A stretch of 62,753 nt of DNA, counting the filler, from Hausera hauseri (lineage: Eukaryota), in NCBI GenBank assembly GCA_046269625.1. It is 11 parts of 11 records of this genome, joined end to end, with 100 filler letters (N's around TTAATTAATTAA, not from the genome) between each part and the next. Parts side by side here need not be neighbours in the genome. Positions count along the whole stretch, not along the records: positions 55,566 to 62,753 come from JBJURY010032225.1; 10 more parts are not named here. One strand, 5' to 3'. The stretch's first letter is position 1. Each line of letters starts with the position of its first letter. This document shows positions 18,480 to 62,753 of the stretch, in pieces. The notes under the pieces are model-generated. The model searched no databases, was not told where the DNA came from, and worked only from the letters and a program-made list of their open reading frames with translations. The position numbers and the translations under genes were made by a program.

Positions 18480-18960
18480 ACATAAGAATTATGGCTATAA
18501 ATTGTGGCAGAGGAGACGATGGGTATGGGAAACCTATCGAAGTACCTATTGAAGAAAGAGATGGAACTGAGCTTTACTCTACCATTATAAACCCCGGAAA
18601 CATGTTCAAGAATCATATGCAGAAGTAAATGGTTTAAGAAAAAAACAACTTATAAGCGGAAAAGACATTCAACAGGTCTGTTCTGAGTTAGACCATTGCC
18701 TCTACGGGTGTATGATAACGGGATACAACGTAAAACGGGAAATCGAGCTATTAAGGATATCCGATGCAAATATTGCCGGACTTAGGGAAATAGCTGCTCA
18801 CCCGATGGTTCAGAATCGAATGAAGAAGACCGTACAAGGAAGAAATAGGCCGACCACACCGGAAGCCTTCTTTAAGTTGATGATTGAATCAATGAATAGT
18901 AATTTAGGCAGAATTTCAAGACTTCTAACAACCAGCCAATGTTCAAATATTTAAAAGAAA
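18480..18960 (+). pseudogene. DEDDh/RNase T-like 3'-5' exonuclease domain in the 3' accessory ORF
   Basis: IMAINCG..KPIEV....DGTELYSTIINPG....NGLRKKQL..GKDIQQVCSELDHCLYGCMITGYNVKREIELL..LREIA follows the REX4/DnaQ pattern. Exo I acidic residues are altered in this copy. Confidence 0.65.
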
Positions 18961-19433
18961 TTTACAAATCATTAAAATGGAAACATAAGTGGACTCCCAG
19001 GAACCCCACGTATAATCTACGCAATTCTTTAAAACCCGAAACAATAAAAACCGAATATAGAAAGAATATCAAACCTTATTCCCCAGCCAGAACCGTCCAG
19101 CCCATAAGTACACATAGCCTTATGGTTACACTACAAGAACCTATGGAAAAACAAGACGAAAACAAAACCGACTTACAAACGAAAAATAAAAGCAACATTA
19201 TGCCAAAGAAACAAAGAGAGGAACGAAGACTGGAATTAACGACTAAGAAACCAAAATTACAAGAGAAATCCCAATTCAAGAAGATATCATCTATTTATAA
19301 CTACCTATTCAAGAAGAAAAGAGAAGATGAGGAACAAAAAGTGGAGAAACAACAAAACAGTCCAAGTACCTCACAGAAGATAGAACCTATATAAAAGAGA
19401 ATTAAAAGTCCCATAATAACTGAAATTAATGCC

Positions 19434-20309
19434 GTGATAGGAAAGAGAATAAAAGGGAACATACATTGCAGAACAGCTCAAGATTTTCCCAGAATGCTGG
19501 TAACCACCGAATATTATAGTAAAAAGATAATAAAGGAAGCCATGTTTTTCATCAAACGTGCTCCAGCAATAGAAGTCTTTGAGAACACCTACGTATGGGA
19601 GAATTCCAAGCTAGGAGCTTACCTCACATCAGTCTTCCGTTCAAAAAGAACCGGGAAAATAATAGTTCCCGTGGATAAACAAATTCGAATATTGCTAAAG
19701 AAACAATATCAGAAATATAAAATAGAAGGGAAGATTCCCGACCTAGATAAAGATCTCATGGCGAATTGGACCTTGAAAGAAGTAAACTGTGACCCTCGAA
19801 AAAGCACCATTAACCCCAAACAAAAGGTGATACATGGATATCTGTATCAGGACGGGGATGGTCTCGTGTTCGAACCCATCGAATTAATTATTCAAGCTGA
19901 CTTGGATAGAGACAATTGAGACAAGGAAGATAACGAATGTCCCGTATGTGATACATACTTAAGGCAAGGCTATGTAGTTATAGACAATAAAAATTGCTGC
20001 CACAAATACTGTCGAGATTGCCTAGAGAAGTGGACACTCGACAACGAAAAGAGAACATGCCCCGTATGTCGGGCAGAGGCCACGGAATTGAAATACTACT
20101 CCGACGGGAGTTACACACGAATTGTTCGGATCAAACCTTACCATAGTTACAATTTGGAAACAAGCCCAGTAACCAATCAAGACCAACGAAATTCACCAAC
20201 AGATCTGCCTGAAAGAATAAATCAATTAAGACAACCTAGGACCTTGGGCGCCACCTCTTCTGACGCAATAGGCTACTTCGAGGATGCCGCTCAGCGAGGA
20301 GAGATGTAA
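19434..20309 (+). pseudogene. 3' accessory ORF C-terminal half: novel conserved domain and C3HC4 RING finger
   Basis: CPVC-x14-CCHKYCRDC-x12-CPVCR at 19938-20072, in frame across one TGA (19917-19919). Clear homology to 13866-14669. Confidence 0.85.
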
Positions 20310-32123: not shown

Positions 32124-35100
32124 CCAGTGGATTATACGTGTCCAACGTTGTGTATATTAATTCGGATTGTGAGATGAATGACAAGAAAAGTGTTAGAAAT
32201 AGACTTGCAGTAGGACATAGAATTACTCGAATTAATGATGATGACACAAGGCATGTGATCGGAGAAGAAGCTATAAATATGCTTAATGAACTTGATTGTC
32301 CGTTTCATAAAAATAGGATTATCTCGGTCTCAATGTGCCGTTTGTTAAAAATTTCCATCTGAGTTTCGACAAACAGGACTTTTTATTCTTGTATGCTGCG
32401 ACTTTACCTCCCAATATGCAGAGACATCAGGAAAATTGTGTCAGCCATTGGTATGCTTGGATCGTAAATCGTCATAATACTAAATTACGAGAAGGAATGA
32501 TTTCATCATAATTTTGGTGGGGACGCAATTTGTGCCCACGACCGCGGCATCACCACCCCCGTGGCAAAAGAGAAATTGTGTAAAGGTAAAAATGAATGAA
32601 AAGGATAATGAAGATGAAAACAATGAAGTAACAAAGGAACAGTGTTTAGTACCTATTCGGTTTTGGTATGTATCAGGCGTTGTGTACCATCAAAGAACTT
32701 TTTTTGCTGTAGGTACTAAATGTCACTGTATGCCTTACTCGATTGATTTATGCTGGGCTGTTGAGTGATATTTTGTGACGGAAGTTTTGAAGGAATATCT
32801 GGTTCAATGTGTGGTATTGCTCGTGATGAAACTGATGAGAATGTTAAGGAGTATAAGTCAAGCAAAAGAGGCGATGCAATAGAAGGCGATGAAACACTCG
32901 ATGTAGGTAATGGAGGTGAGGAAAATGGTGTAGATGATGAAAGGGAGGGAAGCGAGATGGAAGGTGGCTATTGAATATGACAGAGAAATGATTGCTGCAA
33001 AGGCGCAAAGTGATGGAGAAAGTTTGAGGATGGACTAGAAGGACTAAGAGTTGAGTTTGTATCAGAAGTAGAGTTGGCATCCGGATTGTCATCAATGAAG
33101 AAAGCGGGCTTCAGATTCGAAATGTGAACGTTGTAAGGTTTGTTTTGGCGTAAGATGGTAGCTGTATGAGATGAGAGATTCAGCAGTTTGTATGGGCCAA
33201 CATATTGAGGTCTAAAACCCGAAGGCCATTGATCTTCCAGCTACACAAACTTGGTGGTGTACACATCCTTCGGAATGTACGTTTTGTTATCGTTTGACGG
33301 CAGAATGAGTCTTAGCTGACATCGACGAAGTGAAATTGTGCTGCACGAATGTTTTCGTCTGTGGGGTTGTCGTCGAGATAAGAAAGTTTAAATAAAGCTC
33401 GAATTGGAGTCCCAAAGAGTGTCTCGGCTGGAGCACAACTCGTAGTGGTTGAAGGTGTGTTGCATCACCCTAGTAGAACAAATGGTAGAATTGACGTGCA
33501 ACTACAATGACTGTTAGCCAAAATTTTTAAAGAAATTTTCATTGTTCCATGGAACCTTTCAAGGCCATTCGCTTGAAGATGATATGGTGTTGTATGGAAA
33601 TGGGATATCCCCAAGCGTTTAACAAGTTATTTGAAGAGTTCCGACTCAAATTGTGGACCTTGATCCGTTATTATATAACGTGGGGAGCGAAAACGCCTGA
33701 TCCAGATGTTTATGAAGGCGTTGGCTACTGAATCAGTGTTCGTTGAACGAAGAGGAATGGCTTCAGGCCAGCGAAAAGGACGATCCATCATAGTAAGGAT
33801 ATATTGATATCCGTTGTCAGAAGGTAAAGAATTAACGAGATCAAGATGAACCGTATGAAAACTTGATGTACAAGGGAAATGGTAAGGCGGCGGTTTAAGA
33901 TGTTTGTTGATTTTGTATTTTTGACAGGCTGCGCATTCCTTGACCCAGCCCTGTACATCTTTGCGCATTGATGGCCAAACTACATGACGCTGAAGCAGGC
34001 GAAAGGTTGCTTTCGAACCCGGGTGATGGATTAAATGCGTATGAAGGGAGACTGGCTTTTGTAATGGTGGAGTTAGAATGATCTTTTTATTACCGGAATA
34101 CGACGTATCAAAAGCAATTCCATCAATGATTTCGAAGGATTTGAAAAGGCTAAGGAAGTCAGCAGATGGTTGATTGGCCTTTAATACTTCGGATGTGAAA
34201 ATCGGCTCAACTGTAATAGAGCCAACCGACCTCGATAGAAAATCTGTCACCAAATTGTCTGTGCCTGAAATGTATTGTGAAACAAAACTGAATGTAGACA
34301 AGTATGATGTGTCATTCTTGCCTTGGTGATGGCTGCTTTAACATGATATGCAGGAGAGGCTTGTGGTCAGTTTGAATAACAAATAGACGAGAGAGAAGTA
34401 AGTGTTTGAAATGTTTTACTGCCAGAACTATGGCGAGTAACTCACGGTCAAATGTAGAGTAACGGCTTTCGGGTTGTGTGAGTTTTCGGGAGTAAAATTC
34501 TAATGTTTCGTCGACGCCGTTAGAAATGTGGTGTAGCACTGCACCGTTAGCTGTGGTAGAGGCATCGGTGGTATGTATAAGATCTGCATTGGGCTTTGGA
34601 TAGGCCAGTAATTCGACGGTTTTTAGGCCTTCGCGTAAGTGATCAAATTTGGTTACTATTTCAGGAGTCCAGTGGATCAACTGCCTCTTTTTCCGGATGA
34701 TAGATGTGCGAAAGGTGATGTAAGCTTAGAACAATGCGGTACATATTTGTGGATGAAGTGGAGCGTGCCCAAGAAACTCCTCATATCCGTAGTAGTCGTT
34801 GGTAGCGTTGTTTTTTAATTGTTGTAGTCGATTCAGTTGTGGAGAGTGGCCGTGCGGAGTGATGAAGTGGCCTAGGAAATTAACACGTTTTTGAAAGAAA
34901 TGACACTTGGAGAAATTGACTTGCAAATTGTTGTGATGAAGTCTGTGAAAGATAATACGGAGGTGTTCTTGATGTTGTTCAACAGAGGTGGAGGCAACTA
35001 ATATGTCATCAAAGTATGGATGGGCAAAGTCAAGGCCTCATAGAACGGTATCAATGTGTCGTTGAAAAGTTTGGGAAGCACTCTAAGCCAAATGGCATAA

Positions 35101-36748
35101 TGATATATTCATAGAGGCCAAATGGAGTAATAACAGAAGTTTTTGGAATGTCATCAGGTGCAACCGGAATTTGATGATAAGCTTTATGCAAATCAATTGT
35201 GGAGTACGTATTATTATTGGTAAGACTATGCAGGTTGTCCTTTATGAAGTAAAGGGTAAGCATCTAGGGCTGTCAGGTTGTTTAACTGCCGATAGTCACC
35301 ACATGGTCTGTAAGTGCCATCTTTCTTTGTTACTAAATGCAATGGTGAAGCCCATGGTGATTTTGATCTTCGAATGATGCCAGCCTTTTCGAATTCATTG
35401 AAGTCTGATTCAACGGCTTTTCGCCTACGAGGTGACAGTGGTCTGACCTTTTGTCTGATAGGTCTTTGGTATTCGGTGACTATGTGGTGATAAGTTGTAG
35501 AAGGCGGCTTGAAGTTGACGTCCTTTTTGAGGGTGCGGAAGCAGGAAGTTGTGATATAGGATTTGAGATTGGAATCCAGTGATGAAAATGATTGAGGCAT
35601 ATCATCAGAAGCGACAGTGGATTGTATTGCCGAAGAACAACCGTAATTGCCACCATCAACACTCCGTTTAATCGGTTGTTTTAAAACCAATTTAGATACG
35701 TTTGATGTGATGGAAGAAATGGATGAAGTACTAAATGTACCGTTATTAGCCGACGAACAAGTTTTCAAATTCACACGCGAGTTGACAGCCGAAAACGACA
35801 GAGTTTCTACTGGGCTGTTTGGTAGATATTTGTTGGCATCCACGATGGGGTCTCTGTGCAGCAGACAGCGATACTTGCAGTCAACTAGCAGATCATGTGC
35901 GGCCAGAAAATCTGAGCCTATTATGGGAGATTTAATATTAGCCACGTGGAATTTCCAGACAAACTTATCTAGCAAGTTGGCGAATGTGAAAATCACTTCC
36001 ACGGTACCTGCGATGTGCAACGGTTGATCACTGGCAGTGAAAAGCGGTGGAGAAGAAACTATAGTGGATGTAGGAGTGAAGGACAAGGGAAGGAGCGAAA
36101 AGGCAGCTCCTGAATCGATGAGGAAGTCGATGTGTGAAGTATTGTTGGGGAGCAATGCAGCCTTTAACAGAAAAACTGCAGAGGTGGTGTTAAGACGGCC
36201 AGAAGATTCAGCGGTATTGCCTATACCAGAATGTGCCGTGGCATCTGGCGGCGTTGTTAGTTTTTTGAGGTTTGTTGGGAAAAAGAAGAGGAATGAAAAG
36301 AACGAGGAGGAGAAGAAGATGGAGAAAAACTGGAATTCCTTTTATAATATTTGCATCCTGGCACACATGACCTAGCCGTGGACTGATACTTTGTGATAAA
36401 TGCAGATTGGGTTGTCTACTGCATAACGTTCGTCGTAAAATCGACAGCCCAAAAGACACTTTCTTGCATCTCTGCGGAATTTGTTGTGATAAAACATTAT
36501 TCTTCCATCTCGAGATTTGGATCGAAAAGAATGCCTGGGAAGGCCACAATCGCGCGAAACACGGTTTTCACTTTGTCGAGGCACAGATAAATCACTAAGT
36601 TGGGCTGTAATCGCAGAAATTGCTTGTTGAAGTGTATCGAATTGTTTTTGCATCATTTTCAGTTGTTGTAAAAATAAAATGTTATGTGTGTCATGGCGCG
36701 TCAGCGGTTGCTGCAGCTACTGGTTGTGAGCTATTTGATTGTAAGATG
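32124..36748 (-). mobile_element. Decayed Gypsy LTR retrotransposon (gag 3' end, PR, RT, RNase H, IN, Ser/Thr/Pro tail, probable PPT ~32549-32562 and LTR start)
   Basis: FLIDSGA, RPCGDYRQLN, TDASTTANGAVL, RELLAIV, HPG..CQKYK, TDQGPQFES. Many frameshifts. Confidence 0.92.
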
Positions 36749-46477: not shown

Positions 46478-48665
46478 AACCACTTGTAACGTAGACGTCT
46501 TTTTTCGGTTCCGTTGATTTACTTTCCTACGTATCCGAATGAACTGACCAATTAGTATTGCATTTTTCTGGGACTAATATAAGGTTTTTTCGAAGTCGTC
46601 AATTGGCTGAAATTGAAAAAAAAAATCCAACGAGATGTTAAATAATATCGCATGAACTGTAAATGGCTGTGATATTACAAAACTGCATTTCACAACCGAA
46701 TACAGTCATGAAATATCAATGACACTGTTAATCGATCATGACGTTTGGCAATTAGAACTCTGAAAGACCAGCTTAACACACTCACTTTGATGCCAGAGTG
46801 TTCAAACTTGTCTTTCAAAGATGACATTGCATTTCTAAGCTTTTCAAAATAAGTTAACAAACATAATTATTTATAGTAAATCTAATGAGATTATGTAATA
46901 TGATCAGCCAATAATTTGCCACCGTTTAGTCAATCGACAATAAAATAACCAACGGAGATAAATATATTGGGCTTTGTGTCACAATGCAATTGCCTGATTA
47001 CGATGCGTGTGTGTGTGCCGTGAAACTAGACAGGAATGAGTCAGACGTGAAGTTGTAACTGCGCCATCCTACAATGAATGAACACAATACTTAGCGTACA
47101 TTGCAGTTTGCCTGATTGATTAATTTTTTTCGAAATTAAAATAACAACATTCAAAATTCAAATGCAAAACTTTATTATAAATTCATCGCACAGATTTATT
47201 AAGCAGCATTCATCGTTCGTAACTCTTGTAAGAGACTAATGGACTTTTCAATTTTAAGAACCATTAATTTTGTCATATCAGAGCCACATTGAAAGTTCTT
47301 TTTTAGAAATACTTTAAGACAGAGTAGCGGAAGTATTCGTCTTGCTATTTCAACAACATTTATTCCTGCTTATGCTTCCTGTTTCCTGTCCTCCCAAGCA
47401 TGCTTCCTCCTCTACAACCTCTGCTGTTCCTTCATCACCATTGTACGGTGGCCCTGAAGGACAAACCAAAGAAACCAAACACATCTACAGTTCCTTTATG
47501 AGGATAAGCGACAGTTCCAGTTTGTGATTGGACAGAATCCAAGCTTTAGATTGATGTCAGTTCCTGTTTCTGTTGCGGAACCCACCTCCCCTCTTCATTT
47601 TTATCAGTCCCCTTCCAGTAAACTAAGATAAGTGTCAGGTGGTCCATTAAGTACTTTACATCCAGGAACAACTTGATTTCTGACAGATGTTTTATACTGT
47701 GTTTGGTGATTTGTCTTATGACTCAGTTTAATCTCATTTAGTTTTAGATTGGTTAAAGTAAACTGAAATTGTGGCCACTTGATCCAATTTGTTCAACATA
47801 TGAAGACAACTTTGGAAAAAGTCGTTAAAATTTGGTATTTATTGCTCGTACTTCTTGCCTATTGTCAAACAAGTGGAATAAAAGCTCTGATCCCCTCAAA
47901 AAACCTTATGGAATGTGATGCCCTACATACCATGTACACACCCTGATTTATTATCAGATGTCCATGTTTTTTGTTGGGTGTTCCCACCCTAAAGTGTAAC
48001 AACTAACAGTTCCTTAGCCCTTTATTTAATGTTCACCTTTTTCCTCTGCAGAGCCTGNNNNNNNNNNGAACATTACTGAGGAGGAACAAGTCTTAATGCT
48101 GGAATGGATGATGATAAAAATACAAACATGACAACCAACTTAAAAATGTACTTATTGCATTGTGATTCTGGTTAAACAAGCAAACAAAAAAAACACATTA
48201 CTAAACAGGGGTTTATGTGAATCTGAGCTCCACATTCATCTAATTTTCTCCAAACTTTAAGCAAGCAAAATTCTAGAGGCTTTCTGTCAAAATGATGCGT
48301 AATATATCATTTCACTTTTTAAAAAGACACATTATTATTTAAACCTTCCAACTGTTTACTTCATTTTGTCAGAAACATTAAGAAAAGATATGGTTCACAT
48401 TCTTGATTTGTTCTCCATTTTCAAAAACTGTCGGGACTTACAGAAACTTTTTTTTACACGGAGATGACATTTCTTTAACGCAGACAGAAATTGCACTTCC
48501 AAGTGTTTGAGCTGAAGCCATAAAATGATCTAGCTAGATTAGCTTTGCTGTGTGAATGCTGAAATNNNNNNNNNNNNNNNNNNNNNNNNNNNNNNNNNNN
48601 NNNNNNNNNTTAATTAATTAANNNNNNNNNNNNNNNNNNNNNNNNNNNNNNNNNNNNNNNNNNNN

Positions 48666-51421
48666 CGAAAATCAATCTGTTTCATGTGTGCCATAAACTT
48701 GATGAGGAATGCATCACAATCTTTCTTCTTGTTGGGAGCTTGTAGAAGATCCACAGGGCATAGAGGACTTTTTCCTGTAACAGATTGAAAAGGTGAGAAA
48801 CCAGTTTCATCGGGCATACAGCGAAGACTGAAGAGAACAACAGGAAGAGACAGCAACCAATCTTGCTTTCTCGCCATCAGTGCAGTCTTAAGAACACGAT
48901 GAAGACGCTCACATTTTCCATTGCTCTCAGGATGATAGCTAGAAGTTCTAAGTCGATGAAATCCAATAATCTTCGATAATTCTGAGAAGAATTCACTCTC
49001 AAACTGAGCTCCTTTGTCCGATATTACATAGAGCGGAACGCTAAATCTGGAAATCCATTGCATAAAGGCATATGCAACTGAAGGAGCAGTAGTATTGACA
49101 AGAGGGTAAGCTTCCATCCACTTAGTGTTTCTGTCGACGCAGGTGAGAAGGTACTTGAAGACAGGCGACGAAGTGCCATGAAGAGAAGCGGGTGGAAGAG
49201 GACCGACGATGTCAATATGCACAGTCTCGAGTCTGGAGGATGGAATTTCCATTGGCAAGACAGGAGGCTTTGTATGGCGGTGGATCTTGGAAACTTGACA
49301 GTCTTGACAAGCACGAACCCAATCTCTTATATCGCGATCCATGTTCGGCCAAAAGTACCTCGCTTTCAGAAGTCGAAGAGAACCTTTTATTCCTGGATGA
49401 GACATCTGATGCAGATCGTCGTAAACGCGTCGCCGACATGATGAAGGCAAAAATGGTCGGGGGTGAGATGTAGAAGTGTCACACCAAAGTTGTAAGTTAT
49501 CTTGAAGTGGATATGGTTGAAGACGAGCAGAAAAATCCTTGAGTTCTTCATCTGTTTGTTGAAGTCTGGCAATGGCAGGAAGATCTACTGCGTCAATCTG
49601 AACTGAAGAAATGCGAGATAATGCGTCAGCAACTACATTATCTGCACCACGTATATAGAGCATCGACGATACGTATTCCGTGAGTACAGAAAGATGACGC
49701 TGTTGACGATCACTTTTTGCAGGAGTTTTACTGTAGAAAGCTGATACAAGCGGTTTGTGATCTGAACACAGGACAACAGTTCTTCCTTCCAACATGTGCT
49801 TGAAATGGAGCACAGCGAAGTATGCAGCCAATAATTCTCGATCAAAAGCGGAGTACTTCTGCTGTGGAACTGAAAGCTTCTTGCTATAGAAGTCAATGGG
49901 AACTGGTTGACCATCCACCATCTGATGGAGAGCTGCTCCAATAGCAACTTGACTACTATCTGTCACCAGCTGAAGATGCGATACATTCGGTATGGAAAAC
50001 GGCAGAGTCGTGGCGTTCTGGAGTAGATTCTTCATGTTATCAAAAGCTTGAATTTCTTCTTGAGTCCAGGATAAAGACTTGCTTTTTGGAAAATGTTTAG
50101 CTTTCTCTGAGAGTAGGAATATATGATTGGCAAAATTTGGAATGAAACGTCTGTAGAAACCAATCATGCCCAAAAATCTTCTGAGAGAAGGTGAATCTTG
50201 AGGCAAAGGATACTCTGATATTTCTGTCTTCTTGGAGTCAGGAGCACTGAGACCGTCAGCAGATATAGAATATCCCAGAAATTGAAGACTAGTTTTGAAA
50301 AATTCGCACTTTTGCAAACTGATTTTGAAGTTGTTATCATGAAGGATGGCGAAAACTTGACGAAGATGATCCTTGTGTTCTTCTTCAGATGATGAAAATA
50401 CCAGTAAATCATCGACATAGCAAAAAATGAATGGTATGTCTCTGAAGATGGTATCCATCACTCGTTGAAAAGTAGAGCTGGCGTTTCTGAGACCGAAAGG
50501 CATGGTCACAAATTCATAAAGACCAAAAGGAGTAGTAACAGCTGTTTTCTCAATATCCTCTGGGCGAATGGGGATCTGATGGTAGGCTCGTTGCAAATCG
50601 ATCTTGCTGAACGTTGTTGAGCCATGCAGATGTTGAGAGACAGACTGAATATGTGGGATCGAGTAGCGATCTTCCTTGGTAATGGAGTTGAGAGCTCGAA
50701 AATCTCCACAAGGTCTCCAACTTCCTGGTGTCTTCTTAGCCACGAGGTGAAGCGGGGAAGCCCATGCAGACTTCGAAGGTCGAATAATACCAGATTCTAA
50801 GAGAATCTTGAATTCAGCTTTTGCAGCTTGGAGTTTATCTTCGGCTAAACGACGAGGTCGGGCAAAAACAGGAGTAGAGTCACCAGTCTCGATGTAATGG
50901 AAGGGTCCAGTAGTTCGACGAGTCATCGTAGAGACGTTTAACGGACTGGTGAGTGAAGGGTAATCTGTCAGCAAGCTCGAAACCACAGGATGTTCATGTT
51001 CACTGAGATGGAAAATAACATCAGGAATCTTTTCTGCAACAACAGTGAGTGATGCTAGCAAATTTGTCTTCTTATCTAGTATAGTCTTCTGACCACAATC
51101 AATGACCAGGCCATAGTGATGTAGAAGGTCAAATCCAAGTATGGGTGTTGTGATGTCAGCAACAAGGAAGGTCCAAGCAAATTCACGTCGAAGAGATCGA
51201 ATTCCAATCAAAGTAGAGACTTCTCCAAAACACTTGATAGGCGTACCATTAGCAGCGGAGCAAGTGACGCTGGTAGGAGTCAACGAGATATTTGGTACAC
51301 TTGACAGAGGTATGCTGGATATTGAAGCACCGGTGTCTAATAGCCATGATTGTTGAGCGCCGAAGATCTGAGCTTTGATGGTAAACTGCGAACTGATTAA
51401 GGCGCAGACATCAGCTCGCAC
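48666..51421 (-). CDS. pol: Intact Ty3/Gypsy Pol (PR-RT-RNH-IN), 3' end cut by contig edge
   Basis: [56 protein letters not shown]. Uninterrupted ORF in the -1 frame relative to gag. Confidence 0.97.
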
Positions 51422-51423
51422 TG

Positions 51424-52209
51424 TTAGTTTTCCGTAGGTGTTCTGACAGGTGAAGAAGATCGTGATGGAGCAGGAGAAGAGGGGCGAGACGATGGCAACA
51501 TCCTAGTTCGTTCTTTGTTCGGCCACCTACACCAGGGCTTACATGTCCTTGCACTGGACGCAAAGTAAAGGTGGGCTCTGCAAACTCTTGGTTTCTGGTC
51601 AGCGGAGAAAGGACGTACTCCAATCGGAATGGAAGAGGTCGAAGTCGGGGGAGGAGCTGGCTTTGTATCCTTAGCTGAGATGGCAGCAACTGTAGCAGGA
51701 ACTATCGAGACCAAGTGATTGGCGAGTTGTCCTAACTGGTCTAAAGATATCCCAGTTTGAGCGGCTACAGCTGAGCGAATGGATTCTGGCAGACTTTGAA
51801 TGAACTGCATACGTACAAGGTCGTCGCTGATTCCCAACTTGGAAGCTTTGTTCATAAGGTCCCGGAGAAATATCGCAGGTTTACCGGTGTACGTGTGCTT
51901 AGAGACAAAGTCGTTGAACATCTCCACTTTGCTCTGTTCAAAAATAGACACCACTGCAGACTTCAAAGTGGTGTAATTCTCGGCATCCAGAACCGTAGAA
52001 GTCACTCGGTCGAGGATATCGGAAGGAAGCTGCGAGAGAGCATGCCAATATCTGGTCCTCTCGCTGGTAATCCTAGCCAACTGGAATTGAGCTTCCAGCA
52101 CACGGAACCAAGTAGGAACCGAGGTTTCACTAAAAATAGGAACCTTAATTCTCACCTGAGCCAATCTCTCCTCTTGAAGCTGCTGATCTTGGGCGTCGTC
52201 GTCGGGCAT
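51424..52209 (-). CDS. gag: Gypsy Gag with C-x2-H-x9-C-x3-C motif
   Basis: [20 protein letters not shown] ... [18 protein letters not shown]. Ends at slippery G_GAA_AAC TAA. Confidence 0.93.
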
Positions 52210-52242
52210 CTTGAAGACGGGTCACTCCAGGAAGTTCACCAA

Positions 52243-52795
52243 TGTGGCGGAGGGGGCTTGAAGGCTTGGCTGGGTTTTTCTCTTCGACGACGCTTGAGCA
52301 GCTCCAGAGATATCGACCCAACTTCTACTTCGTAGGCTGATTCGAACACACCCTAATTTGTTTCACTCACAAGGTTAAAGGAAACAAGCCTATAAGATAG
52401 GCAGATTACTTATTTATTGAATTTACAACGCTCTATATATATTGGTTATCTCGAATACATGCCGTTATTTTCAGTTTTAATTAAAGAAAACTTATTTTAT
52501 GTATGACTTTTATAAATTATTTAAATTATCAAATTAACCTTTAAAAACATATAAAATTTTTAATTCTCAATTTTTAGACTTTAATTTCTTTATTATAGTT
52601 ACTTTTTTATATACATTTTCATTTTAAATATTTCACATTATTATTTTTTCAATTAAAATATGTTCACATTCGAACTTTAAGGGTAACTATTATTTTTGCA
52701 TTATTTGCTATAATCGCTAACTTCACACGTTTTCACATTTTACTAATAACAAAATTATTTTAATATTTTTCACTTCGTTTATTATGTTCACTACA
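52243..52795 (-). repeat. LTR (~553 bp, TGTAG...CCACA) shared by two tandem elements; PBS ~52228-52241, PPT ~52796-52810
   Basis: TG...CA ends, TATA and AATAAA on the minus strand, near-identical partial copy at 54530-54718. Confidence 0.88.
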
Positions 52796-52823
52796 TACAC
52801 TTCCTTCCGGGGGAGTGGAGCGA

Positions 52824-54528
52824 TCACACTTTGAAGCGAACTTTGCGCACAGGATTCCTCCGGATTGGGGGTTCAGTAGAAGACGGAATCACGGGAGTTG
52901 CATCAGCAGGCCTCCGTTCTTGAGGGCCCACAGGAGCACTGGAAGGTCTAGAAGATACTGCTGGTGCCACAGCAGGTTTCAAACGGCTAATAGAGACAAC
53001 ATCGGAGCGACCATCGGGAAGGAGAATCTTGAAGCATCGATCCATACGCTGAAGCACTTGAAAAGGACCGGTGTATGGTGCTTGCAATGGCTTCTTGATA
53101 CGATCGACTCTAAGATACACATGAGAACATTGTGCCAAATCTTGAGGAATGTACGTTGATTGGCTGGAAGAGTGGAAAATTGGCAGGTTACGAAAATCAA
53201 TCTGTTTCATGTGTGCCATAAACTTGATGAGGAATGCATCACAATCTTTCTTCTTGTTGGGAGCTTGAAGGAGATTCATAGAGCAGAGAATATCCACTGC
53301 ACCGATAGTCATTGAAGAACTGCGGGAAAATGCGTCACAAACTAAATTATCCGTACCACGTATATAGGGCATCGATGATACGTATTTCGTGAGTACAGAG
53401 ACAATGTTGTTGACGATCACTTTTTTGCAGAAGTCTTTAATATAGAAGCTGGATACCAATGGTTTGAGATCGGAGCATGAAACGACAGCTCTTCCTTCTA
53501 GCATATGATTGAAATGGAGGATGCAGCCAATATTTCTCTATCGAAGGCGGAGTAATTTTTTTGTTTTTGCATTAATAGCTTCTTACTGTAGAAGTCAATT
53601 GGAACTGGTTGACAGTCCACCATCTAATGGAGAGTAGCACCAATAGCAATTTGACTACTAGCTGTCACAAGCTGAAGATGCGATACACTTACATTTGAGA
53701 ATTGGAAAGTTGCAGCGTTCTTGAATTGATTGTTTGCTATCAAAATCTTGAATTTTTTCTGGCGTCCAGAATAGAGACTTGGTTCTTGTGAAGCTCTTAG
53801 CTTTTTCTGAGAGGAGGAAGATATGATTGGCAAAATTGGGAATAAAGAGTCTGTAGAAACCAGTCATACCTAAAACTCTTCTGAGAGAAGGCGGGTCTTG
53901 AAGCAAAGGGTATTCTAACATTTATGTCTTCTAGGAGTCGGGAGTACTGAGACCACAAGCAGATATTGAATATCCCAAAATATGAAGAGATCTGTTTCTT
54001 ATACATAGTAGAGATGGCAGAGGCCGTGATAGGAACAAACGAGACCAAATCTTTGGCGAGTTGTCCTAACTGGTACAAAGACATCCCAGTTGGAATGGCG
54101 GTTGTAATTCGAATTGACTCAAGCAGGCTTGTTAATATTGCATATGCACAAGATAATTGCTAATTCTTATTTTGGCAACCTTATTTATTAAGCCTTGTAG
54201 AAGCATCACACGTTTGCCAGTATTCATGTTCTTGGAGACAAAATCGTTGAAAATCTCCACCTTATTCTGATCGAAAATAGACACCACTGTCGAATTGAGA
54301 GCTGTGTAGTCTCGGCGTCCAGAAACGGTGAGAGATATTCGCTCTAGAGTGTCGGCGAAAAGTTGGCAAACAGCATGCAAATATCTGATTCTCTCATAAG
54401 TGCGCTTGGAGCACCCGGAACCAGCCTTACTTAACTTAGAAAACTTAACTCTTACCTGGGCCAATATCTCCTTTGGAACTGGAGCGTCGTCGTCGGAATC
54501 TTGAAGGCAGGTCACTCCAGGGTCACCA
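52824..54528 (-). mobile_element. Internally deleted non-autonomous relative (diverged gag, RNase H piece, IN C-terminus)
   Basis: Decayed gag 53990-54515, RNH remnants and GPF-containing IN tail. 53193-53267 matches 48668-48741. PBS TGGTGACCCTGG (tRNA-Trp-like). Confidence 0.85.
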
Positions 54529-54529
54529 A

Positions 54530-54718
54530 TGTGGCGGAGGGGGCTTGAAGGCTTGGCTGGGTTTTTCTCTTCGACGACGCTTGAGCAGCTCTAGAGATAT
54601 CGACCCAACTTCTACTTCGTAGGCTGATTCGAACACACCACTAATTTGTTTCACTCACAAGGTTAAAGGAAACAAGCCTATAAGATAGGCAGTGATTACT
54701 TATTTATTGAAATTACAA
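54530..54718 (-). repeat. Partial 5' LTR (R/U5 side only)
   Basis: Near-identical to 52243-52428, then unrelated sequence. Confidence 0.85.
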
Positions 54719-55565
54719 ATCAAATGAATGTTTTCTTCATTTATATAAAACCACAAAAATGCCAACTTAGAAAATGTTTCTATATTCGCAACAAAACAAT
54801 GAAACATTGGCCTTTAATATTCATTGCAGAACTTCATATAAAGTACAAAACACAAGATTTCCTCACGTTATGAACGAAGAATTGACAAAGCTATTATCAA
54901 GTTTTATTAAGTGTTTAAATAAACTGATTTAAACTAGTACGCATGAAAATCTAAAATTGGGACAGAGTTGAAGCAAATATCAGAAAATGCCTTTCGCACC
55001 TTAAGAACCACCTAAAGCTAGGTTGGTTTACAACGGATCTGGGTAATCTTTTGAAAAGTTTAAGAAGTTAAGTTTCGTTGATCCAAAAGCGATGTGAGAG
55101 ATGCGCTATTGAAATTTGAAAATTTGGTTTATACCATGAGCAGGATCCTTACTACTGTGGACAAAAAGTAATGAGACTGATTAAATATAACAGAAAATAT
55201 TTTCTTCAACCAAATTTATTGTGTTTCCTTCAAAATTATCCCCTTACACTTGAATACAATTATCCCAACGTTTTTTTCCAGTCTTTGAAACAATTATTAT
55301 ACGCAGTTGCAAAGTGGTCAGAGAATTTCCTTGGATAGCTTCTATTGACTCAAATCTATGTCCACGAAGTGGTAATTTCAATCGATGAAAAGGAAACAGT
55401 CACACGTATCCATATCTAGAAAATATGGTGCTTGCGATACGACATTCATTTGACTTTTGATGAAANNNNNNNNNNNNNNNNNNNNNNNNNNNNNNNNNNN
55501 NNNNNNNNNTTAATTAATTAANNNNNNNNNNNNNNNNNNNNNNNNNNNNNNNNNNNNNNNNNNNN

Positions 55566-58500
55566 AGGGTGATAAGTTGAGAGATGTAATAGAAATAGAT
55601 GAAGGAATAGAAATAGGGTGTGGAGCAGAAATAGTGATAAAAGTTGGAGTAGATAAAAATGCCGAGATGGGGACAGGAATGGAATTGGTAGGTGACAATG
55701 TAGGCACAGACACAGGAGCAGCGGAATGATGTGTGGTAGACTGGGGAATCGAAGTCGGGGTAGAGATGGTTACAGGGTTGAGGAATGAGGTTAATGTTTC
55801 GGTTGGTGATGTATCGTCAACGTAAAATGCGGGTTTTAAATTAGTGATATGCACTACAACTTCTTTTCCGTCTTTGAGGATAACAGCGTTGTGCTAATGC
55901 AGCTGCACCATTTTATATGGTCCTAAGTACTGTGGCTGGAAACCACATGGTGTCTGATTTTTTAGCCATACACGCTTTGCCGAGTATAAACCTTCGGGTA
56001 TGTAAGATTTGGTATTGTGTAAGAGCCTGCAAAACGAATCTTTGCTGATTGTAACGAAATGATTCTGTGCTGATCGTATCCTCTTGTCTGTAGGAGTCTC
56101 CTCTAGAGCGGTTAGTTCAAACAGTGACCGAACAGGGGTTCCGAATAAAGCTTCCGAAGGTGAACATCCTGTGGAAGTGGACGGAGTGTTCCGTCAGCCA
56201 AGCAGGACGAACGGTAAAAGTGTAGTTCAATTGGTGTTGGACTGTGCAAGGATTCTAAGTGATGTTTTCAAGATTCGGTGGAAACGTTCGAGAAGACTAT
56301 TTGATTGGGGATGATATGGTGTTGTATGAATGTGACTTATTCCCAATCGGTTGACTAGGGATTTGAACAGGTTTGATTCAAATTGATGACCTTGATCCGA
56401 GATGATATATCGAGGGGATTCGAACCTACTAATACACGTACGGATGAAAGTATCGGCTATTGTGTCAGTGTTTGTACTACGCAGTGGAATGGCTTCCGGC
56501 CATAGTAAGTAACGGTCCATCATGGTCAGAAAAAATTGGTGGCCTTTGTCTATTGGAAGAGGATTAACGATATCAATATGTACTGTTTCGAAACGTAAAG
56601 TGCAGGGGAAGTGGCATAATGGTGGTTTTAAATGTTTTATGGTTTTATATTTCTGACAAGCCATGCACTATTTAACCCATGCTTGCACATCGGAGCGCAT
56701 TGACGGCCAAACTGCTTGACGTTGAAGTAAACGAAAAGTTGCTTTGGCACCAGGATGGTGTAACGAATGTACACTATCACATGCTTGTTTGTGTAAAGAT
56801 GGGGCAAGAATTATTTTAGAATGTCCTGTTTGGAAGTATCTAAGGCCACGCCGTCAACGATGTGGTGCGACTTGAACGATTTGAGAATATTTTGAGATGG
56901 CTGATTTTCTTGGAGTTTTTTCTGAGTAAAGATTGGCAAAAAATTGATTGAACCGACTGATCTAGATAGGAAATCGGCAACTAGATTGTCAACACCGTCA
57001 ATGTGTTTAATGTCGAAGTTAAACGTGGATAAATATGAAATTTGTCGTTCTTGTGGAGTTGCAGGGTGTTTCATTGACATTATATTAATCAGCGGTTTGT
57101 GATCAGTCTGTGTAACAAAGCGACGAGCTGTAAGTAAGTGAGAAGAATGTCTTAAAGCAAGAACTATTGCCAGCAGTTCCCGATCGAAAATTGAATATCT
57201 AGTTACTGGCGGCGTTATTTTTCGGGAAAAGAATTCTAGGGGCTGATTTTCGCCTTTATACAACTGGTGTAGTACGGCACCTACTGCGATGTTTTATACA
57301 TCTGTGGTAAAAATTATCTCAGCTTCAGGCTTAGGAAATGCTAGTATTTCAACAGTCTTTAGTCATTTGCATAGTCTATCACACTTATTAACCAGTTTTG
57401 GTGTCCACATGATTTTCTGGTATTTTTTCCCTCCGTTTATGTGTGCGAAAGGTGTTGTGTGTTCTGGACAATATGGGATATATTTGTGGACGAAATGCAA
57501 GGTACCAAGAAAACTGCAGATTTCTGTGGTTGTCTTAGGTAGTTGGACGTTTTTAAGAGTCTCAACTTGATCAGGCTGATGTGAATGGCCGCTTGAGGAG
57601 ATATTATGTCTAAGAAAATTAACGCGTTTTCGGAAGTATTTATATTTTGCAAAATTGATCTGTAGGTTAAACTGATTAAGTCGTTGGAAGACAGATTGTA
57701 GGTGTTCCTCGTGTTGTTTAACTGATGAAAATGCAACCAAGATATCGTCAATATGTGGGTGTACAAAAGGAATATCTGAAAGGATTGAGTCGACGTATCG
57801 CTGAAAAGTCTGCGCAGCATTCCGGAGACCAAAAGACATGTACAAATACTCATAAAGACCGAAAGGTGTGGTAACTGCAGTTTTCTCGATGTCTTCCGGT
57901 GCGACAGGAATTTGGTCGTAGGTTTTGGCTAAATCAATTGTTGAATAAACTGTAGTAGTATTAAGCCGATGTAAAATGTCTTTGATTAATGGTAGTGGAT
58001 ATGCATCTATTATGGTTAAAGTATTAGGCTGGCGGTAATTGCCGCATAGTCGGAAGGATCTATCTTTTTTGGACAACGTGGAGAAGTGAAGACCAAGGGG
58101 ATTTAGATCTACGGGCAATACCTTATTGTTCGAGTTCAACAAATTCCGCCTCTACTGCCTGTCTGCGACACGGTTACAATGGACGGACCTTTTGTCAAAT
58201 TGGTCTTTGGTGTCGTGTAATTATATGGTAGTAAATGCCGTTTACAAAGGTGAGATTTCGATCTTTCTGAAGTATATAAGGACACGAAGTCTTGATGAAT
58301 TGTTGTAAACTTACGAGTAGTTGCTGGAATATTGGAAGTGACAATGAACCAAGGTTACTAGCAGTACTTGGTGAATGTTGGTTGATTGTTGGTGGGGAAT
58401 CGAGTGGAATATGATGTAAAATGGTCGTGTCTGAAACCTTATTTGAGTAAGTGTTGTTGGTCAATGATTTTACTGAAGATACAAGATCGTGAGTGTCGAT

Positions 58501-59075
58501 ATTAAGCTGTGACTGATTATCGACAATGTTCTTTGACAGCTTACGAGGTAAAACGTGATAATTAAGAGAAATAGGATATGGTGTTGACTGTTTAATATTT
58601 ATTGCCTACTTACCGTTGGTTGTGCTATCGTCGGCGTGCTGTCTATTCCTGTACTACAGTCTTCCGGTGTATTTGATTTCAGGCATCGTTGGTTACAGTC
58701 GACTAGCAAATTATAGCGCGACAGGAAATCGGACCAAGGTATTGCCGTCTGGACGTTAAGGACTGTAAACGGCCAATGAAAAGGTGAGGAAAATTTTGGT
58801 AGAGTGAAAAATAATTTGCAAGTTCCGGAAATATGTAGAGGTTGACCTGAGGCGATGTATAACGGTTTTGTTTTAAGTGAAGAATGTTGAACTGGAAAAG
58901 AAAGTGGTAGAAATGAGATCGCTGCACCGGTATCGATGAGGAAGTCTGGATTAAATGTTAGAAGTGGAGATAGCAGCTTTTAGTGTAAAGACAGCAAAAG
59001 AAGTGTGTCGGCAAGAATGACTAGGTAAGTTGCCTTTGCCAGAATCTGCCGTGAATACTGGCGGCGAAATAAGTT
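55566..59075 (-). pseudogene. Decayed Gypsy pol related to 32124-36748
   Basis: FLIDTGA, RLCGNYRQ, HIDD, RELLAIV, HIDIV, SDQG, ERFH and a Ser/Thr/Pro-rich tail. Confidence 0.92.
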
Positions 59076-59151
59076 TTTTTGGATTGGTGAGTTGGGACGG
59101 TTAATATTAGAGAAACTGGAACGTCTATCAATGGTGTAGTTATGGTTAGTT

Positions 59152-60168
59152 TTATAGTGGCAGCCTGAAACAATTCCGAGCATTAAATCCAAATTTTGCA
59201 TGATAGATGCAAACCATGTTATCTGAGTGTAGATGCGAGGAATAATACCTACAGCCTAAAGAGCATTTATTTGCTTTGTTATTAAATTTGTTATGATAGT
59301 AACACATAAATAACTGCGTTGGTGACGGTGTTCGATTTCTGGAAAGAGAACATGTTCGATGAGATGAGGAAGCATTTCGTCGATGTAAGGAAAGGTCATT
59401 CAGTTTATCATTGATGTTACTGATTGTATGTTGTAGTACCGAATTTTCGGCTCGTAATTGTTTCAATTGGTGTTCGATAGATGTATGTTCTTGGCTGTCA
59501 TCGGTTGTGATTACGGCTGATATGATGGGTTGTGGTTGTATTTGTAAAACTTCGTGTGTTTTATCGACTAATTCAGCTAATTTATCTAAAGCTGTAGAAT
59601 CCTCAACAACAGTAAATAAAGACTTAATTTGAATGGGTAAAGGATTAATGAAATATCGGCGGAGTGGATCCGGTTTGTGTTCCTTGGTGACACCCAGGGT
59701 ACGTAAGTGGGCCAACGAGGTGCGTAAGAATGCACTAGGTTTTTGTGTCCCCATTGCGTTTTCATTAAAGAATCGTTGTATTATCGAGTAAATTGGTGGT
59801 TCTGTTAAATTTAATACAGCATTGAACAATTGTGTATGAGGGTCAGGATGTTGAAAGATGTCCACTAAGTTATGGATTGAGGTCTTTATGGAGTTTGGTA
59901 GAATGTAGAGTAGATTATGGGCTTCGGTTAACGAGTCGGTAATGCCGTTGGATTGTAGCCAAAGTTGATTGAAGTGGAGCCAATTTTTAGTAGAATTTTC
60001 ATTGTCTGTAAAGTATTCATAGCAATGTAAGGGTGCAATTGTAGGGGTTTTGTGAGAAAAATTAGTATAGACTGAAGGAGTTAAATGGTTTGAATGAGGA
60101 TAGTAAATAATGGATTTGGGTATTGTAGTAACCTTATCTGTAATGTCACTGGTTGGTGAAGAAATCAT
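59152..60168 (-). CDS. gag: Gypsy Gag with tandem C-x2-H-x9-C zinc motifs
   Basis: MGTQKPSAFL, LDKLAELVDK, coiled coil, CYYHNKFNNKANKCSLGC and CIYHAKFGFNARNC. Frameshifted near the 3' end. Confidence 0.85.
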   Translation of the reverse strand: MISSPTSDITDKVTTIPKSIIYYPHSNHLTPSVYTNFSHKTPTIAPLHCYEYFTDNENSTKNWLHFNQLWLQSNGITDSLTEAHNLLYILPNSIKTSIHNLVDIFQHPDPHTQLFNAVLNLTEPPIYSIIQRFFNENAMGTQKPSAFLRTSLAHLRTLGVTKEHKPDPLRRYFINPLPIQIKSLFTVVEDSTALDKLAELVDKTHEVLQIQPQPIISAVITTDDSQEHTSIEHQLKQLRAENSVLQHTISNINDKLNDLSLHRRNASSSHRTCSLSRNRTPSPTQLFMCYYHNKFNNKANKCSLGCRYYSSHLHSDNMVCIYHAKFGFNARNCFRLPL

Positions 60169-60385
60169 ACCGCCGCGGATTCTAAAGTGAATGTGAATAC
60201 AAGGTAGTGTTGTGAGGACATGATTTGTGGGTGGTCAGTTAAAATGAATCCATTGTGTGTCAAGTAGAATTCATTGAAGGCGGTGGCTTTATGAATTAGG
60301 TCATATAATTGTATTGTGTCGATACATTTTGTTATATGTGCGGTATGTATTAATTTATTATTTACAAAAAGGTGGATGGAAAATG
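60169..60385 (-). pseudogene. Ubiquitin-like domain fused in frame to the Gag N-terminus (one frameshift)
   Basis: FSIHLFV...IDTIQLYDLIHKAT..EFYLTHNGFILTD (one frame), then LPCIHIHFRIRGG|MISS in the Gag frame. About 72 aa. Confidence 0.7.
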
Positions 60386-60954
60386 ATGACGAGGCAACAA
60401 GGTGGGTGATGTTGTATCTCAACGTATTTTGTCACATATCTTGTAGCTGTTGAATTAGTTGCTTTAAGCGTGGTTTTGCCCTGACCGGTTCCGATCGTCC
60501 AGACGAGTTTAATTCCATCGGTGAACCCAGACGCAGGTGTGGTAAGGGCAGAAGCTAAACATCATACATACGTCTTGAATGGTAAATATTGATAAAATCC
60601 AGTTAATGTTAAATTGTATGGAACCAAATTGGCTGTTATATTTCTTGAAACCGAACTAGCCTTACCTAATTGACAATTAACTGTGATGAATTCGCCAATG
60701 TATTGCAGGCCTATAGTAATAACCTTAGTACTTGAAATGAAGTATGTGGTCTGTCCGTTTCTTTTAATTATGAATTTTGCATTTGTATAATGAGAACATT
60801 TTTTAATTTTTTGTGAACAGGTAATGGTTTCATTAACAGAAAATAGTGTTTGACGTAACAGCCATAAATTTAATGTAATTAGTGATGACGTACAATTTTT
60901 TGACACCAACCGAACTCTACTCTGGTTTAGACCAGTGTGACCCTCCGAAGGGAC

Positions 60955-61660
60955 TTATTTAACGATTCTAGTCAACGCTTTAGACCACCGTTTTTTGTTT
61001 TGTATAACGAAGCAGATGGACAAGGCGATAAGAATGTGCCAAAGGAAATGGTACAAGTAATATATGTATCCATGAGATACCGACAAACGGAAAAGGACAA
61101 ATGCAACTGCAGCACAGACCAGACGTGGTAAGAGACCAAGAAGCCACGAATCAATGGGTAGTAGGATAACTTGTAATTGGTAAACGCAAAAACTCCAGGA
61201 TCCTAATATGATCATTGTTCTAATACTGATAGGTGTAAGGTAGAGCCAGAACGATTTGTGAATCACACAAGCGAGTAATGAACAAGCAAAAAACATTATT
61301 ATATTTAAAATCATTTGTAATATGTCAGGAAGCGATGTGCATACCATTAGAGTGACCCACATGCTGTTGACCGCAGTAATATGATCAAAGTAAGCAAGTT
61401 TATCAACAGGTAACATGCACGTGCTATATTCGCTATAATCTAAGCTGCACATAACATACACCATAGAAAATCCACCAGCTATAAGGTACATTAAAGTGAA
61501 GGGAAGTGTGCGTTAAAAACCGGCAATTATTGTCGGAAAAATAAAGGTCAAATTAGACAAGACTAATGGTCCTCGACTGTGCTTTGCTTTACCTTCCATA
61601 CTTCATGTACTAACATTTCCAGGATATGGTTGAAATATGGTAACCGTTTCATGTTTGACA
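60955..61660 (-). pseudogene. TMEM8/PGAP6/myomaker-family (CREST-like) multi-pass membrane protein, decayed; ectodomain-like sequence may extend toward 62753
   Basis: LSNLTFIFPTII, FSMVYVMC....C.LPVDKLAYFD...NSMWVT, YYLYHFLWHILIALS. Upstream TIFQPYPG resembles the TMEM8A/B ectodomain. In-frame stop at ~61515. Confidence 0.75.
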
Positions 61661-62753
61661 TCAATTAAAGTGCATGGGTCCTTAAGTTATTTCGCAACAG
61701 TTGTTTGATGATGTAGTGGAAAAAGACGTGTTTGTTAACGGACATTTCAGACGGAACTAGCTGACCAAATTCGTAAATCGGTATTGTCGTAACAGTAAAC
61801 TCATTCTATACGGAGAACAAGATTCCGTCACTGTTTAGGACAACGAGGGCGTAAATTTTCATCTGTTTACAAGTGAGCATTATTCGTTTCGACAGGAAGG
61901 AATGTCTAATCGAATGCACCTTACCGTATACATGACCCCTCGCATTGAACGACAGCCTAACTCGAAGTCCGTGAATACCGCAATTCAACCAAAGTGCATT
62001 TTCCATTATCACACAATTCTTACTTCAGTCCACCGAGCTATTTCCATCGTAATAAAATACCAACGGTGTCCACAACAATTCCACATTATACGCAACAACC
62101 ATAGGACCTGTAAGATGAATACTCTTGTTCTGCTGTTCCGAATTCTTCTTCACCGAATTGGTGAACTTCTCTCGTTGCAACATCAACAAGTGGCCAATGT
62201 AGTTGACGAGAAGACTACAGAAAGGTGAACTACCGTGACCATCGTACAGATTCTGAGTTAGTTCACAGTGAATTCATGATAAATTAACGGAGATCACGCA
62301 TGCCGAAAATTTGATGTAACTCTCACGGGAGGTGATCTGATAGGATTGTAAAGATATTAATCCTGACTCTGTGCAGTGTATGTTATGAAGGCATATCGAT
62401 CCATCAATGGAAGGCGTGACGAATATGTTATTGTATAAATTAACAAGTAGAAATTAATGGTGGTACCGGCAAACTGAAACAACTTTCATCGTCGATCATT
62501 TTTAACGAATCATAGAATCTTAATTTGAAATTCTCTTTTTTATTGTTATAACATAAAAGATGAGATTTTTAAACCACACTGCATCACCAACAACTTCCAT
62601 AGACTGTTCTTGTGTTTCATTGCTGAACAGTCGCCACTGTTGAGTGCTTAAATAAAATACGGCAAAGCCTTCTTTGCCAGCAACAAAAAGGCAGTTTTCA
62701 TTTCGATTGACAGCTGCAAATTTAATCGGCCAATTAACATTTATATACGACTC

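Follow-up and report, generated by a model that had tools for sequence, protein, structure and literature searches.

Precursors of the Ub/Ubl-Gly-Gly-X type, built on ubiquitin (Ub) or a ubiquitin-like domain (Ubl), start at the ubiquitin Met and are cut by host enzymes. A related device is known from pestiviruses, in which Ub/Ubl insertions place a ubiquitin moiety in the polyprotein as a processing signal and give the downstream protein an authentic N-terminus (PMC8310069, available sections). According to the same sections, the truncated ubiquitin of BVDV CP Rit, located behind a ribosomal-protein fragment, is a processing signal cut by host hydrolases, and in BVDV Ub-NS3 these hydrolases cut even when the first three residues of ubiquitin are missing (PMC8310069). 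In pestiviruses, which are RNA viruses, such insertions arise sporadically by recombination in particular strains and consist of near-intact host sequence.

Among retrotransposons, the closest relatives of the element described here are the Ty3/gypsy (Metaviridae) elements with a DUF7041 (PF23055) Gag. They share with it the Gag-PR-RT-RH-IN order, the −1 gag/pol overlap, the polypurine tract, the primer binding site (PBS) and the capsid fold; in ordinary members, however, Gag starts at its own Met and has no Ubl. A Ubi2/SUMO-like motif (PF11976) occurs in the polyprotein of the giant gypsy elements Burro/GYPSM1 of planarians (PMC6431247). In that 4,873-aa protein, Gag is N-terminal and the motif is found further downstream, flanked by MATH and BCL-2 domains, and the available part of the paper proposes no di-glycine processing role for it (PMC6431247). 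Yeast Ty1 has its PBS inside the Gag frame, as is the case here, but it is a copia-type element, and the accessible portion of its description mentions neither a Ubl nor removal of a leader (PMC4974528). The 2A/StopGo peptides near the N-terminus of non-LTR ORFs also split off an N-terminal piece within one frame; they act by ribosome skipping (PMC3708506, part of the text), whereas the device considered here would need a host protease. No element with a Ubl before Gag was reported in the literature searched; Repbase, GyDB and most subscription journals were outside its coverage, so a database note may exist. The parts of PMC9289625, PMC3383448 and PMC10516033 available to us contain nothing on this layout.

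We describe a Ty3/gypsy clade in which a Ubl ending in Gly-Gly precedes Gag. Unlike the pestivirus insertions, the Ubl is fixed throughout a deep clade of retrotransposons, in most cases diverged to about 20% identity, and is placed before the capsid. The layout of Burro/GYPSM1 (a giant single polyprotein with the Ubl and env downstream) was not encountered: the related loci are units of about 5 kb in which the Ubl precedes Gag and pol has its own −1 frame, with no env-like frame seen. Sequence comparisons make it probable that a host Ub/Ubl protease cuts after the Gly-Gly and frees Gag from a leader translated from the inferred LTR.

Anatomy of the decayed copy in the window

The window, i.e., the whole stretch of 62,753 nucleotides from Hausera hauseri that was analysed, consists of short contigs joined by N spacers, and the Ubl-Gag feature lies in the last of them (55566-62753). 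The minus strand of this contig carries a Ty3/gypsy-type element with the order Gag-protease-reverse transcriptase-RNase H-integrase, broken by stops and frameshifts (Table 1). The copy is decayed and 5'-truncated, and its Ubl before Gag is split by one frameshift. It has lost its LTR and leader and is non-functional.

Table 1. Features of the Ubl-Gag element in the last contig, with positions along the window.
Feature	Position	Strand	Evidence
First four strands and helix of the Ubl, upstream frame	60204..60392	-	Profile match E 1.4e-5, best of 2026 pieces; BLASTP to P0001 32% over 50 aa; predicted strand-strand-helix-strand-strand, pLDDT 80
Frameshift breaking the Ubl, approximate place	60201..60205	-	Frames differ; indel in 9 contigs of run X1; in P0001, P0002 and P0005 a single frame spans the site
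Final strand of the Ubl with its basic-aliphatic-basic-Gly-Gly tail, Gag frame	60169..60201	-	Codon list; aligns with the P0001 tail; Gly-Gly present in every row of alignment A3, the rows having been selected for it
Gag: linker, DUF7041-type capsid, coiled coil, Cys/His-rich C-terminus; starts with a Met absent from most relatives	59152..60168	-	41% to P0001; relatives match PF23055; P0001 capsid model, VIA Z 9.4-9.6 against MLV CA
Candidate −1 slippery site, gag/pol overlap	59073..59079	-	A6C run at 59079; same run at the Gag end and pol in the −1 frame in 8/8 loci checked
Aspartic protease frame	58599..58979	-	DTG motif by eye; no Pfam match
Reverse transcriptase	57363..58151	-	Pfam RVT_1 E 6e-25; 45-49% to the pol of loci with the Ubl, against 39% to the ordinary element at 48614-51502
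RNase H	56811..57293	-	Pfam RT_RNaseH E 1.5e-19
Integrase, decayed	55900..56810	-	Six-frame translation, by eye
5' truncation point, element ends at the Ubl start	60386..60390	.	X1 depth 621-3772 over 60120-60389 vs 95-161 from 60390; 15 contigs go on with other DNA at 60386

An earlier note, made from this sequence alone, had proposed a ubiquitin-like domain ending in Gly-Gly and fused directly to the Gag Met. Much of its local description was confirmed: the Gly-Gly (60174-60169) and the Met (60168-60166) are in frame with a 360-codon Gag frame (59152-60234, minus strand), the remainder of the domain lies in another frame (60165-60431), and the interval 60169-60385 corresponds to the domain size of about 72 codons given there. 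The frame break itself also stood. It probably falls near 60201-60205, where nine X1 contigs show an indel, so the first two residues that the note had quoted are probably off-frame.

Contigs of run X1 stack on the Ubl as they do on the rest of the element, with a depth of 1857 in the Ubl bin and 32-37 at the far end, depth in X1 not being equal to copy number. According to this depth profile, the Ubl belongs to the repeated element, and the present copy was cut at the Ubl start. No LTR was found upstream of the truncation, the window copy has no direct repeat of ≥40 nt, and the PBS pattern had no match anywhere in the window. At 60166-60184, no difference above 20% was seen among the 40 of 77 rows listed. 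The contig of the sister element that the note had suggested for comparison (32124-36748) stops within the final third of Gag. An ordinary DUF7041 gypsy element without a Ubl (Gag at 51427-52221, long pol), and then a diverged second copy, occupy 48666-55465 on the minus strand and served as an internal control. The C-terminus of Gag in the window (59152-59330, minus strand) and in the clade consists of two tandem Cys/His units, distinct from a classical CCHC knuckle, which are well conserved and confidently modelled in the clade Gags.

Several other frames were observed around the element. The minus-strand frame at 60360-60954 has one stop in 198 codons and Ig/fibronectin-III repeats by eye, with no Pfam match. 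At 60955-61610, on the element's strand and upstream of the truncation, lies a frame of 218 codons with 3 stops that resembles the multi-pass membrane proteins TMEM8/myomaker (Pfam DUF3522, E 1.3e-8), i.e., a fusogen-family fragment beside an env-less element. It has no apparent introns and is decayed, at a low depth of 50-111, and a homologue search with it gave no result. A fragment of the second beta-propeller of RIC1 follows at 61800-62753 on the minus strand (Pfam E 3e-24); its single frame of 318 codons contains 7 stops. The RIC1 and DUF3522 pieces look like host mRNA pieces captured in tandem, and tandem capture of this kind has reportedly been described for LTR-mediated retroposition. 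X1 contigs span the junction at 60386 at high identity, so the chimera is present in run X1, perhaps in several copies. Other contigs of the window contain a fibronectin-III and transmembrane frame and related unknown frames (17121-17807 and 18903-19919, plus strand; 9835-11304 and 14274-14732, minus strand). The frame at 14274-14732 resembles 19395-19919 by eye, and these are possibly accessory genes of another element family.

Homology, fold and distribution of the ubiquitin-like domain

A profile of 40 homologous Ubls, with the window left out, was searched against the 2026 stop-free pieces of the window. The frame piece 60168-60431 ranked first (E 1.4e-5), the next unrelated piece being at about 0.5, and it still gave E 8e-5 after the three closest relatives had been removed from the profile. 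The piece carrying the Gly-Gly came second with an E-value of about 0.4, which is not significant alone. No second domain of this kind was found in the window with the same profile. One relative, P0001, was obtained from the protein collection; it has both halves of the Ubl and Gag in one frame with a Gly-Gly-Met junction, and Ubl and Gag share one frame in the intact relatives generally. Scans of viral contigs with the window Gag frame and P0001 as queries found no relative.

In the Pfam scan, neither P0001 nor the window pieces matched ubiquitin; the latter gave only UCH_UBL1, at E 0.02. Across the clade, Pfam ubiquitin (PF00240) matched 12 of the 40 proteins scanned at E ≤ 0.01, with values ranging from 1e-23 to 2e-3; the near-canonical members P0010, P0040 and L001 reached about 1e-23. 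The AlphaFold2 model of P0001 (41 rows) contains a beta-grasp at residues 100-168, with a pLDDT of about 90 and disorder before it. The Foldseek matches listed for this domain were ubiquitin, SUMO, NEDD8 and other Ubl entries throughout, with probability 1.0 and TM values of 0.7-0.8 on single Ub/SUMO targets; the best E-value, 1.4e-3, fell short of 0.001. VIA aligned it to SUMO with Z 10.7 (rmsd 1.8-2.0 over 71-74 residues). The 63-residue piece of the window before the break was predicted to have the expected order of elements. Taken alone, with its last strand missing, it reached a best E of 0.95 in Foldseek, and its best VIA score was Z 4.3 to unrelated chains, with Ubls at about Z 3. An Atlas feature search, used as a lead only, placed ubiquitin clusters at ranks 18-30 with scores of 0.83-0.84. 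The model of the intact relative P0001 thus has the fold of the beta-grasp superfamily, and the matches across the clade point to sequence homology with ubiquitin.

The distribution of the trait was assessed with a profile search of 1.84 billion representatives, which produced 47 matches at E ≤ 1e-30; the profile contained the Ubl and favoured Ubl-bearing matches. In a quick tree of the capsid region, built from 156 of 165 sequences with nine fragments left out, 58 rows including the window formed one group (SH-aLRT 93), three pairs among them being the same element as protein and as locus. An aliphatic-x-Gly-Gly tail 5-60 aa before the capsid was present in 49 of these 58 rows. The remaining nine are gene calls too short to tell, and no long row lacked the tail. 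Neither outcome that the earlier note had named as fatal to its claim occurred: a ubiquitin fold was predicted for the intact relative, and the clade has retained the Gly-Gly tail. One protein, P0003, was dropped because it looks chimeric. The long N-terminal extensions of the database proteins (pieces of histone H2A, CNOT1, SCC3, a methyltransferase and a nucleotidase) vary from one protein to the next; they were regarded as probable joins by the gene caller and disregarded.

These data bear on the simplest objection, namely that the motif arose by chance or is a host ubiquitin fragment captured once at this place, like the RIC1 and DUF3522 pieces upstream. The window copy does adjoin host-gene fragments, and its Ubl piece alone has no significant fold match; however, the domain is situated in that part of the element which is present in many copies, and it is found again in 49 rows of a single clade. 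Chance or a one-off capture is refuted by the profile matches, the clade tree and the tail counts, and we regard it as virtually excluded.

Outside the clade, 95 of the 98 rows gave no match to the Ubl profile, with only 44 reaching more than 35 aa upstream. The other three (P0095, P0150 and P0152) form one group with support 100 and have a Ubl before Gag. They are DUF7041 Gags whose N-terminal Ubl ends in Gly-Gly, and two of them keep a Met right after it. Their Ubl may represent a second origin or may share a single one with the Ubl of the clade.

The reading frame upstream of the domain in sister loci

A DNA scan with two capsid motifs yielded 14 loci (L001-L014), which belong to a sister subclade and not to the subclade of the window; an open leader was not a selection criterion. 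Pfam found reverse transcriptase, RNase H and integrase in the loci. The Gly-Gly junction is present in 13 of the 14, the exception, L004, being cut there by contig ends. A PBS pattern, which we take to be of the tRNA-Leu type, lies upstream of the Ubl in 10 of the 14. In six loci, TGT after a polypurine tract indicates an LTR of 343-688 bp; these LTRs were deduced from a single collapsed copy, reaching from the polypurine tract to the PBS, and not from two copies with target-site duplications.

In nine of the ten loci with a PBS pattern, the Ubl frame contains no stop between a point 90 nt upstream of the PBS and the Ubl, over 75-196 codons. In the open leaders, 5.9-17.7 stops were expected versus none seen, and 0-6 of 5000 shuffles were as open. 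The exception is L005, whose leader has a frameshift and four stops; in L002, a stop follows 50 codons after the Gly-Gly. Among the other sense frames over the leader, one of 20 (in L006) was open too. A second open frame overlaps the leader across the PBS in the close relatives L006 (62-598) and L013 (2733-3005). The 5' part of the same LTRs contains 2-17 stops per frame. The open frame begins at an ATG 94-324 nt before the PBS, which places 77-247 codons before the Ubl, and the PBS is crossed in all three frames among the loci. Two pairs of loci are closely related, leaving about seven independent lineages.

The longer precursor to Gag suggested by the earlier note is thus visible in related loci as an open frame running from the inferred LTR through the PBS to the Ubl. 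Its upstream part varies in sequence and length, and the tail and fold of the Ubl are kept. Rough estimates of dN/dS lay at 0.35-1.02 in the leader, at 0.16-0.50 in the Ubl and at 0.04-0.16 in Gag; dS was saturated in many cases, and the leader alignments were poor. Between the Gly-Gly and the first capsid Trp, a Met was found in none of the 13 loci, and in L001 the single Met before the Gly-Gly lies inside the inferred LTR. The 97 open residues upstream of the Ubl in P0001 fit an open leader, but this protein is a gene call. A membrane-anchor role of the leader was not supported, as it was not more hydrophobic than shuffled sequence in any of ten loci (≥111 of 2000 shuffles as high).

Conserved tail, lost surface and the putative release of Gag

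We compared 40 aligned Ubls, all of which have the Gly-Gly because they were selected for it; position numbers depend on the alignment. Before the Gly-Gly, position 73 is Leu or Ile in 38 of the 40 and position 72 is Arg or Lys in 32, whereas position 74 is variable (Arg 13, Leu 11, Lys 5, Tyr 3). The residue after the Gly-Gly was Ser in 16 of 41 rows, Met in 6, Thr, Asn and Ala in 4 each and Gly in 3, and was never Pro (0/41). In sequence, the Ubls therefore carry the hallmark of a cleavable Ub/Ubl fusion, a Gly-Gly after a basic-aliphatic-x tail with no Pro next. The same counts correct the earlier note on one point. Its description of a fusion to the Gag Met does not hold as a rule: the Gag frame includes the Ubl, the residue after the Gly-Gly varies, and a Met there is not conserved as a Gag start. 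A Met near the first position of ubiquitin occurs in only 2 of 34 rows, and a long leader comes first, which sets these proteins apart from the known Ub/Ubl-Gly-Gly-X precursors. Since few Met are found at either place, the Ubl is not the start of the protein, nor is it followed by a conserved start of Gag.

The binding surface of ubiquitin is lost. In the 40 rows, position 44 is mostly Thr, Ser or Cys, position 70 is Asn, His or Ser, and position 42 is Tyr or Phe; position 8 is likewise not kept. The Leu8-Ile44-Val70 patch and Arg42, expected of a type I conjugatable modifier for binding E1 and receptors, are thus absent from most members, near-canonical ones being a minority. This weakens the second branch of the earlier note, in which the Ubl would act as a modifier of the element's own or as a decoy. 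In such a case, the released leader-Ubl with its free Gly-Gly end would be the product that matters, acting on other proteins or on host ubiquitin enzymes. A cleavage product would indeed end in Gly-Gly, and the near-canonical ubiquitins of L001, L002, L003, L005, P0010 and P0040 could be activated by E1. With the E1/receptor surface missing in most members, a long variable N-terminal extension on the Ubl and no sign of a membrane anchor in the leaders of the ten loci, we consider this role rather improbable.

Alternatively, the Ubl could stay on Gag as an N-terminal structural, folding-aid or targeting domain replacing matrix, with the Gly-Gly as a relic. Integral uncleaved Ubl domains are common in proteins (parkin, midnolin and BAG1 are among the fold matches), and purifying selection on a fold that has lost its canonical binding surface would suit such a role. 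However, the Gly-Gly and the two preceding tail positions are the best-kept part of a domain in which most members are otherwise 13-29% identical to the near-canonical one, and without cleavage the 77-247 variable residues of the leader would sit on every capsid subunit. An uncut domain is accordingly unlikely.

A third possibility is a dosage or turnover device, in which an exposed N-terminal residue (an N-degron), or delivery of the uncut fusion to the proteasome, would limit Gag and restrain transposition. Self-restraint of this kind has been proposed for the 2A sequences of non-LTR elements (PMC3708506, in the part available), and the residues after the Gly-Gly are mostly small. These residues vary freely, however, and a turnover role leaves the open leader frame unexplained. 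Under the N-end rule, the residues seen at this position are mainly stabilising, which also speaks against a degron. We judge turnover very improbable as the main function; it is compatible with release of Gag as a possible side effect.

Release of Gag at the Gly-Gly is the simplest reading, because the frame is kept open with loose content, the fold and the scissile tail are kept, and the surface and the Gag start are lost. Ribosomes would start at the upstream ATG, which would lie on the full-length RNA, and translate the PBS and the leader. An enzyme of the deubiquitinase type would then cut after the Gly-Gly, giving a defined N-terminus to Gag and, via the −1 frameshift, to Gag-Pol, and the leader-Ubl piece would be discarded. 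The identity of the cutting enzyme is uncertain because the Ubls are diverged and have lost Leu8, Arg42, Ile44 and Val70, residues contacted by many deubiquitinases. Canonical deubiquitinases may act poorly on the strongly diverged Ubls; this, together with the origin of the leader evidence in the sister subclade, is the main weakness of release by a host protease.

If release at the Gly-Gly holds, it would be a mode of Gag expression not found in the literature searched. The element would need no AUG-free 5' leader, as host enzymes would strip whatever precedes the capsid. For a clade of retrotransposons, a host deubiquitinase would act as a maturation factor and also as a point of control, retrotransposition being dependent on it, and the ubiquitin trick of pestiviruses would extend from sporadic mutants to a fixed lineage trait. 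For annotation, the arrangement accounts for the odd N-termini that gene callers give to the Gags of this clade. The dozens of natural Ubls, from near-ubiquitin to about 15% identity, also form a series for the minimal needs of deubiquitinases.

A wider account can be put forward tentatively, as a real possibility that we would not call probable. A deep lineage of LTR retrotransposons would translate its own LTR, PBS and packaging leader as a throw-away peptide, with a captured ubiquitin, reduced to fold and scissile tail, as the host-protease release tag for Gag. The arrangement would have arisen at least twice among DUF7041 Gags (P0095, P0150 and P0152 forming the separate group), and decayed tags would have been replaced several times by fresh host ubiquitin at the same junction. 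On the tree, the near-canonical Ubls of L001, L002, L003, L005 and P0010 are scattered among diverged ones, and L003 (193-420) and L007 (1615-1842) are 77% identical in Gag and 21% in the Ubl. The near-canonical label needs three changes on the tree, at least two of them forced by starred branches; a single clade of near-canonical ubiquitins was not rejected (p-AU 0.08). This pattern is no more than suggestive of repeated replacement by host ubiquitin (re-capture), or of recombination, at the Gly-Gly junction. Near-canonical ubiquitin beside strongly diverged Ubls in close Gag relatives was also observed in L005 compared with L008 and L009.
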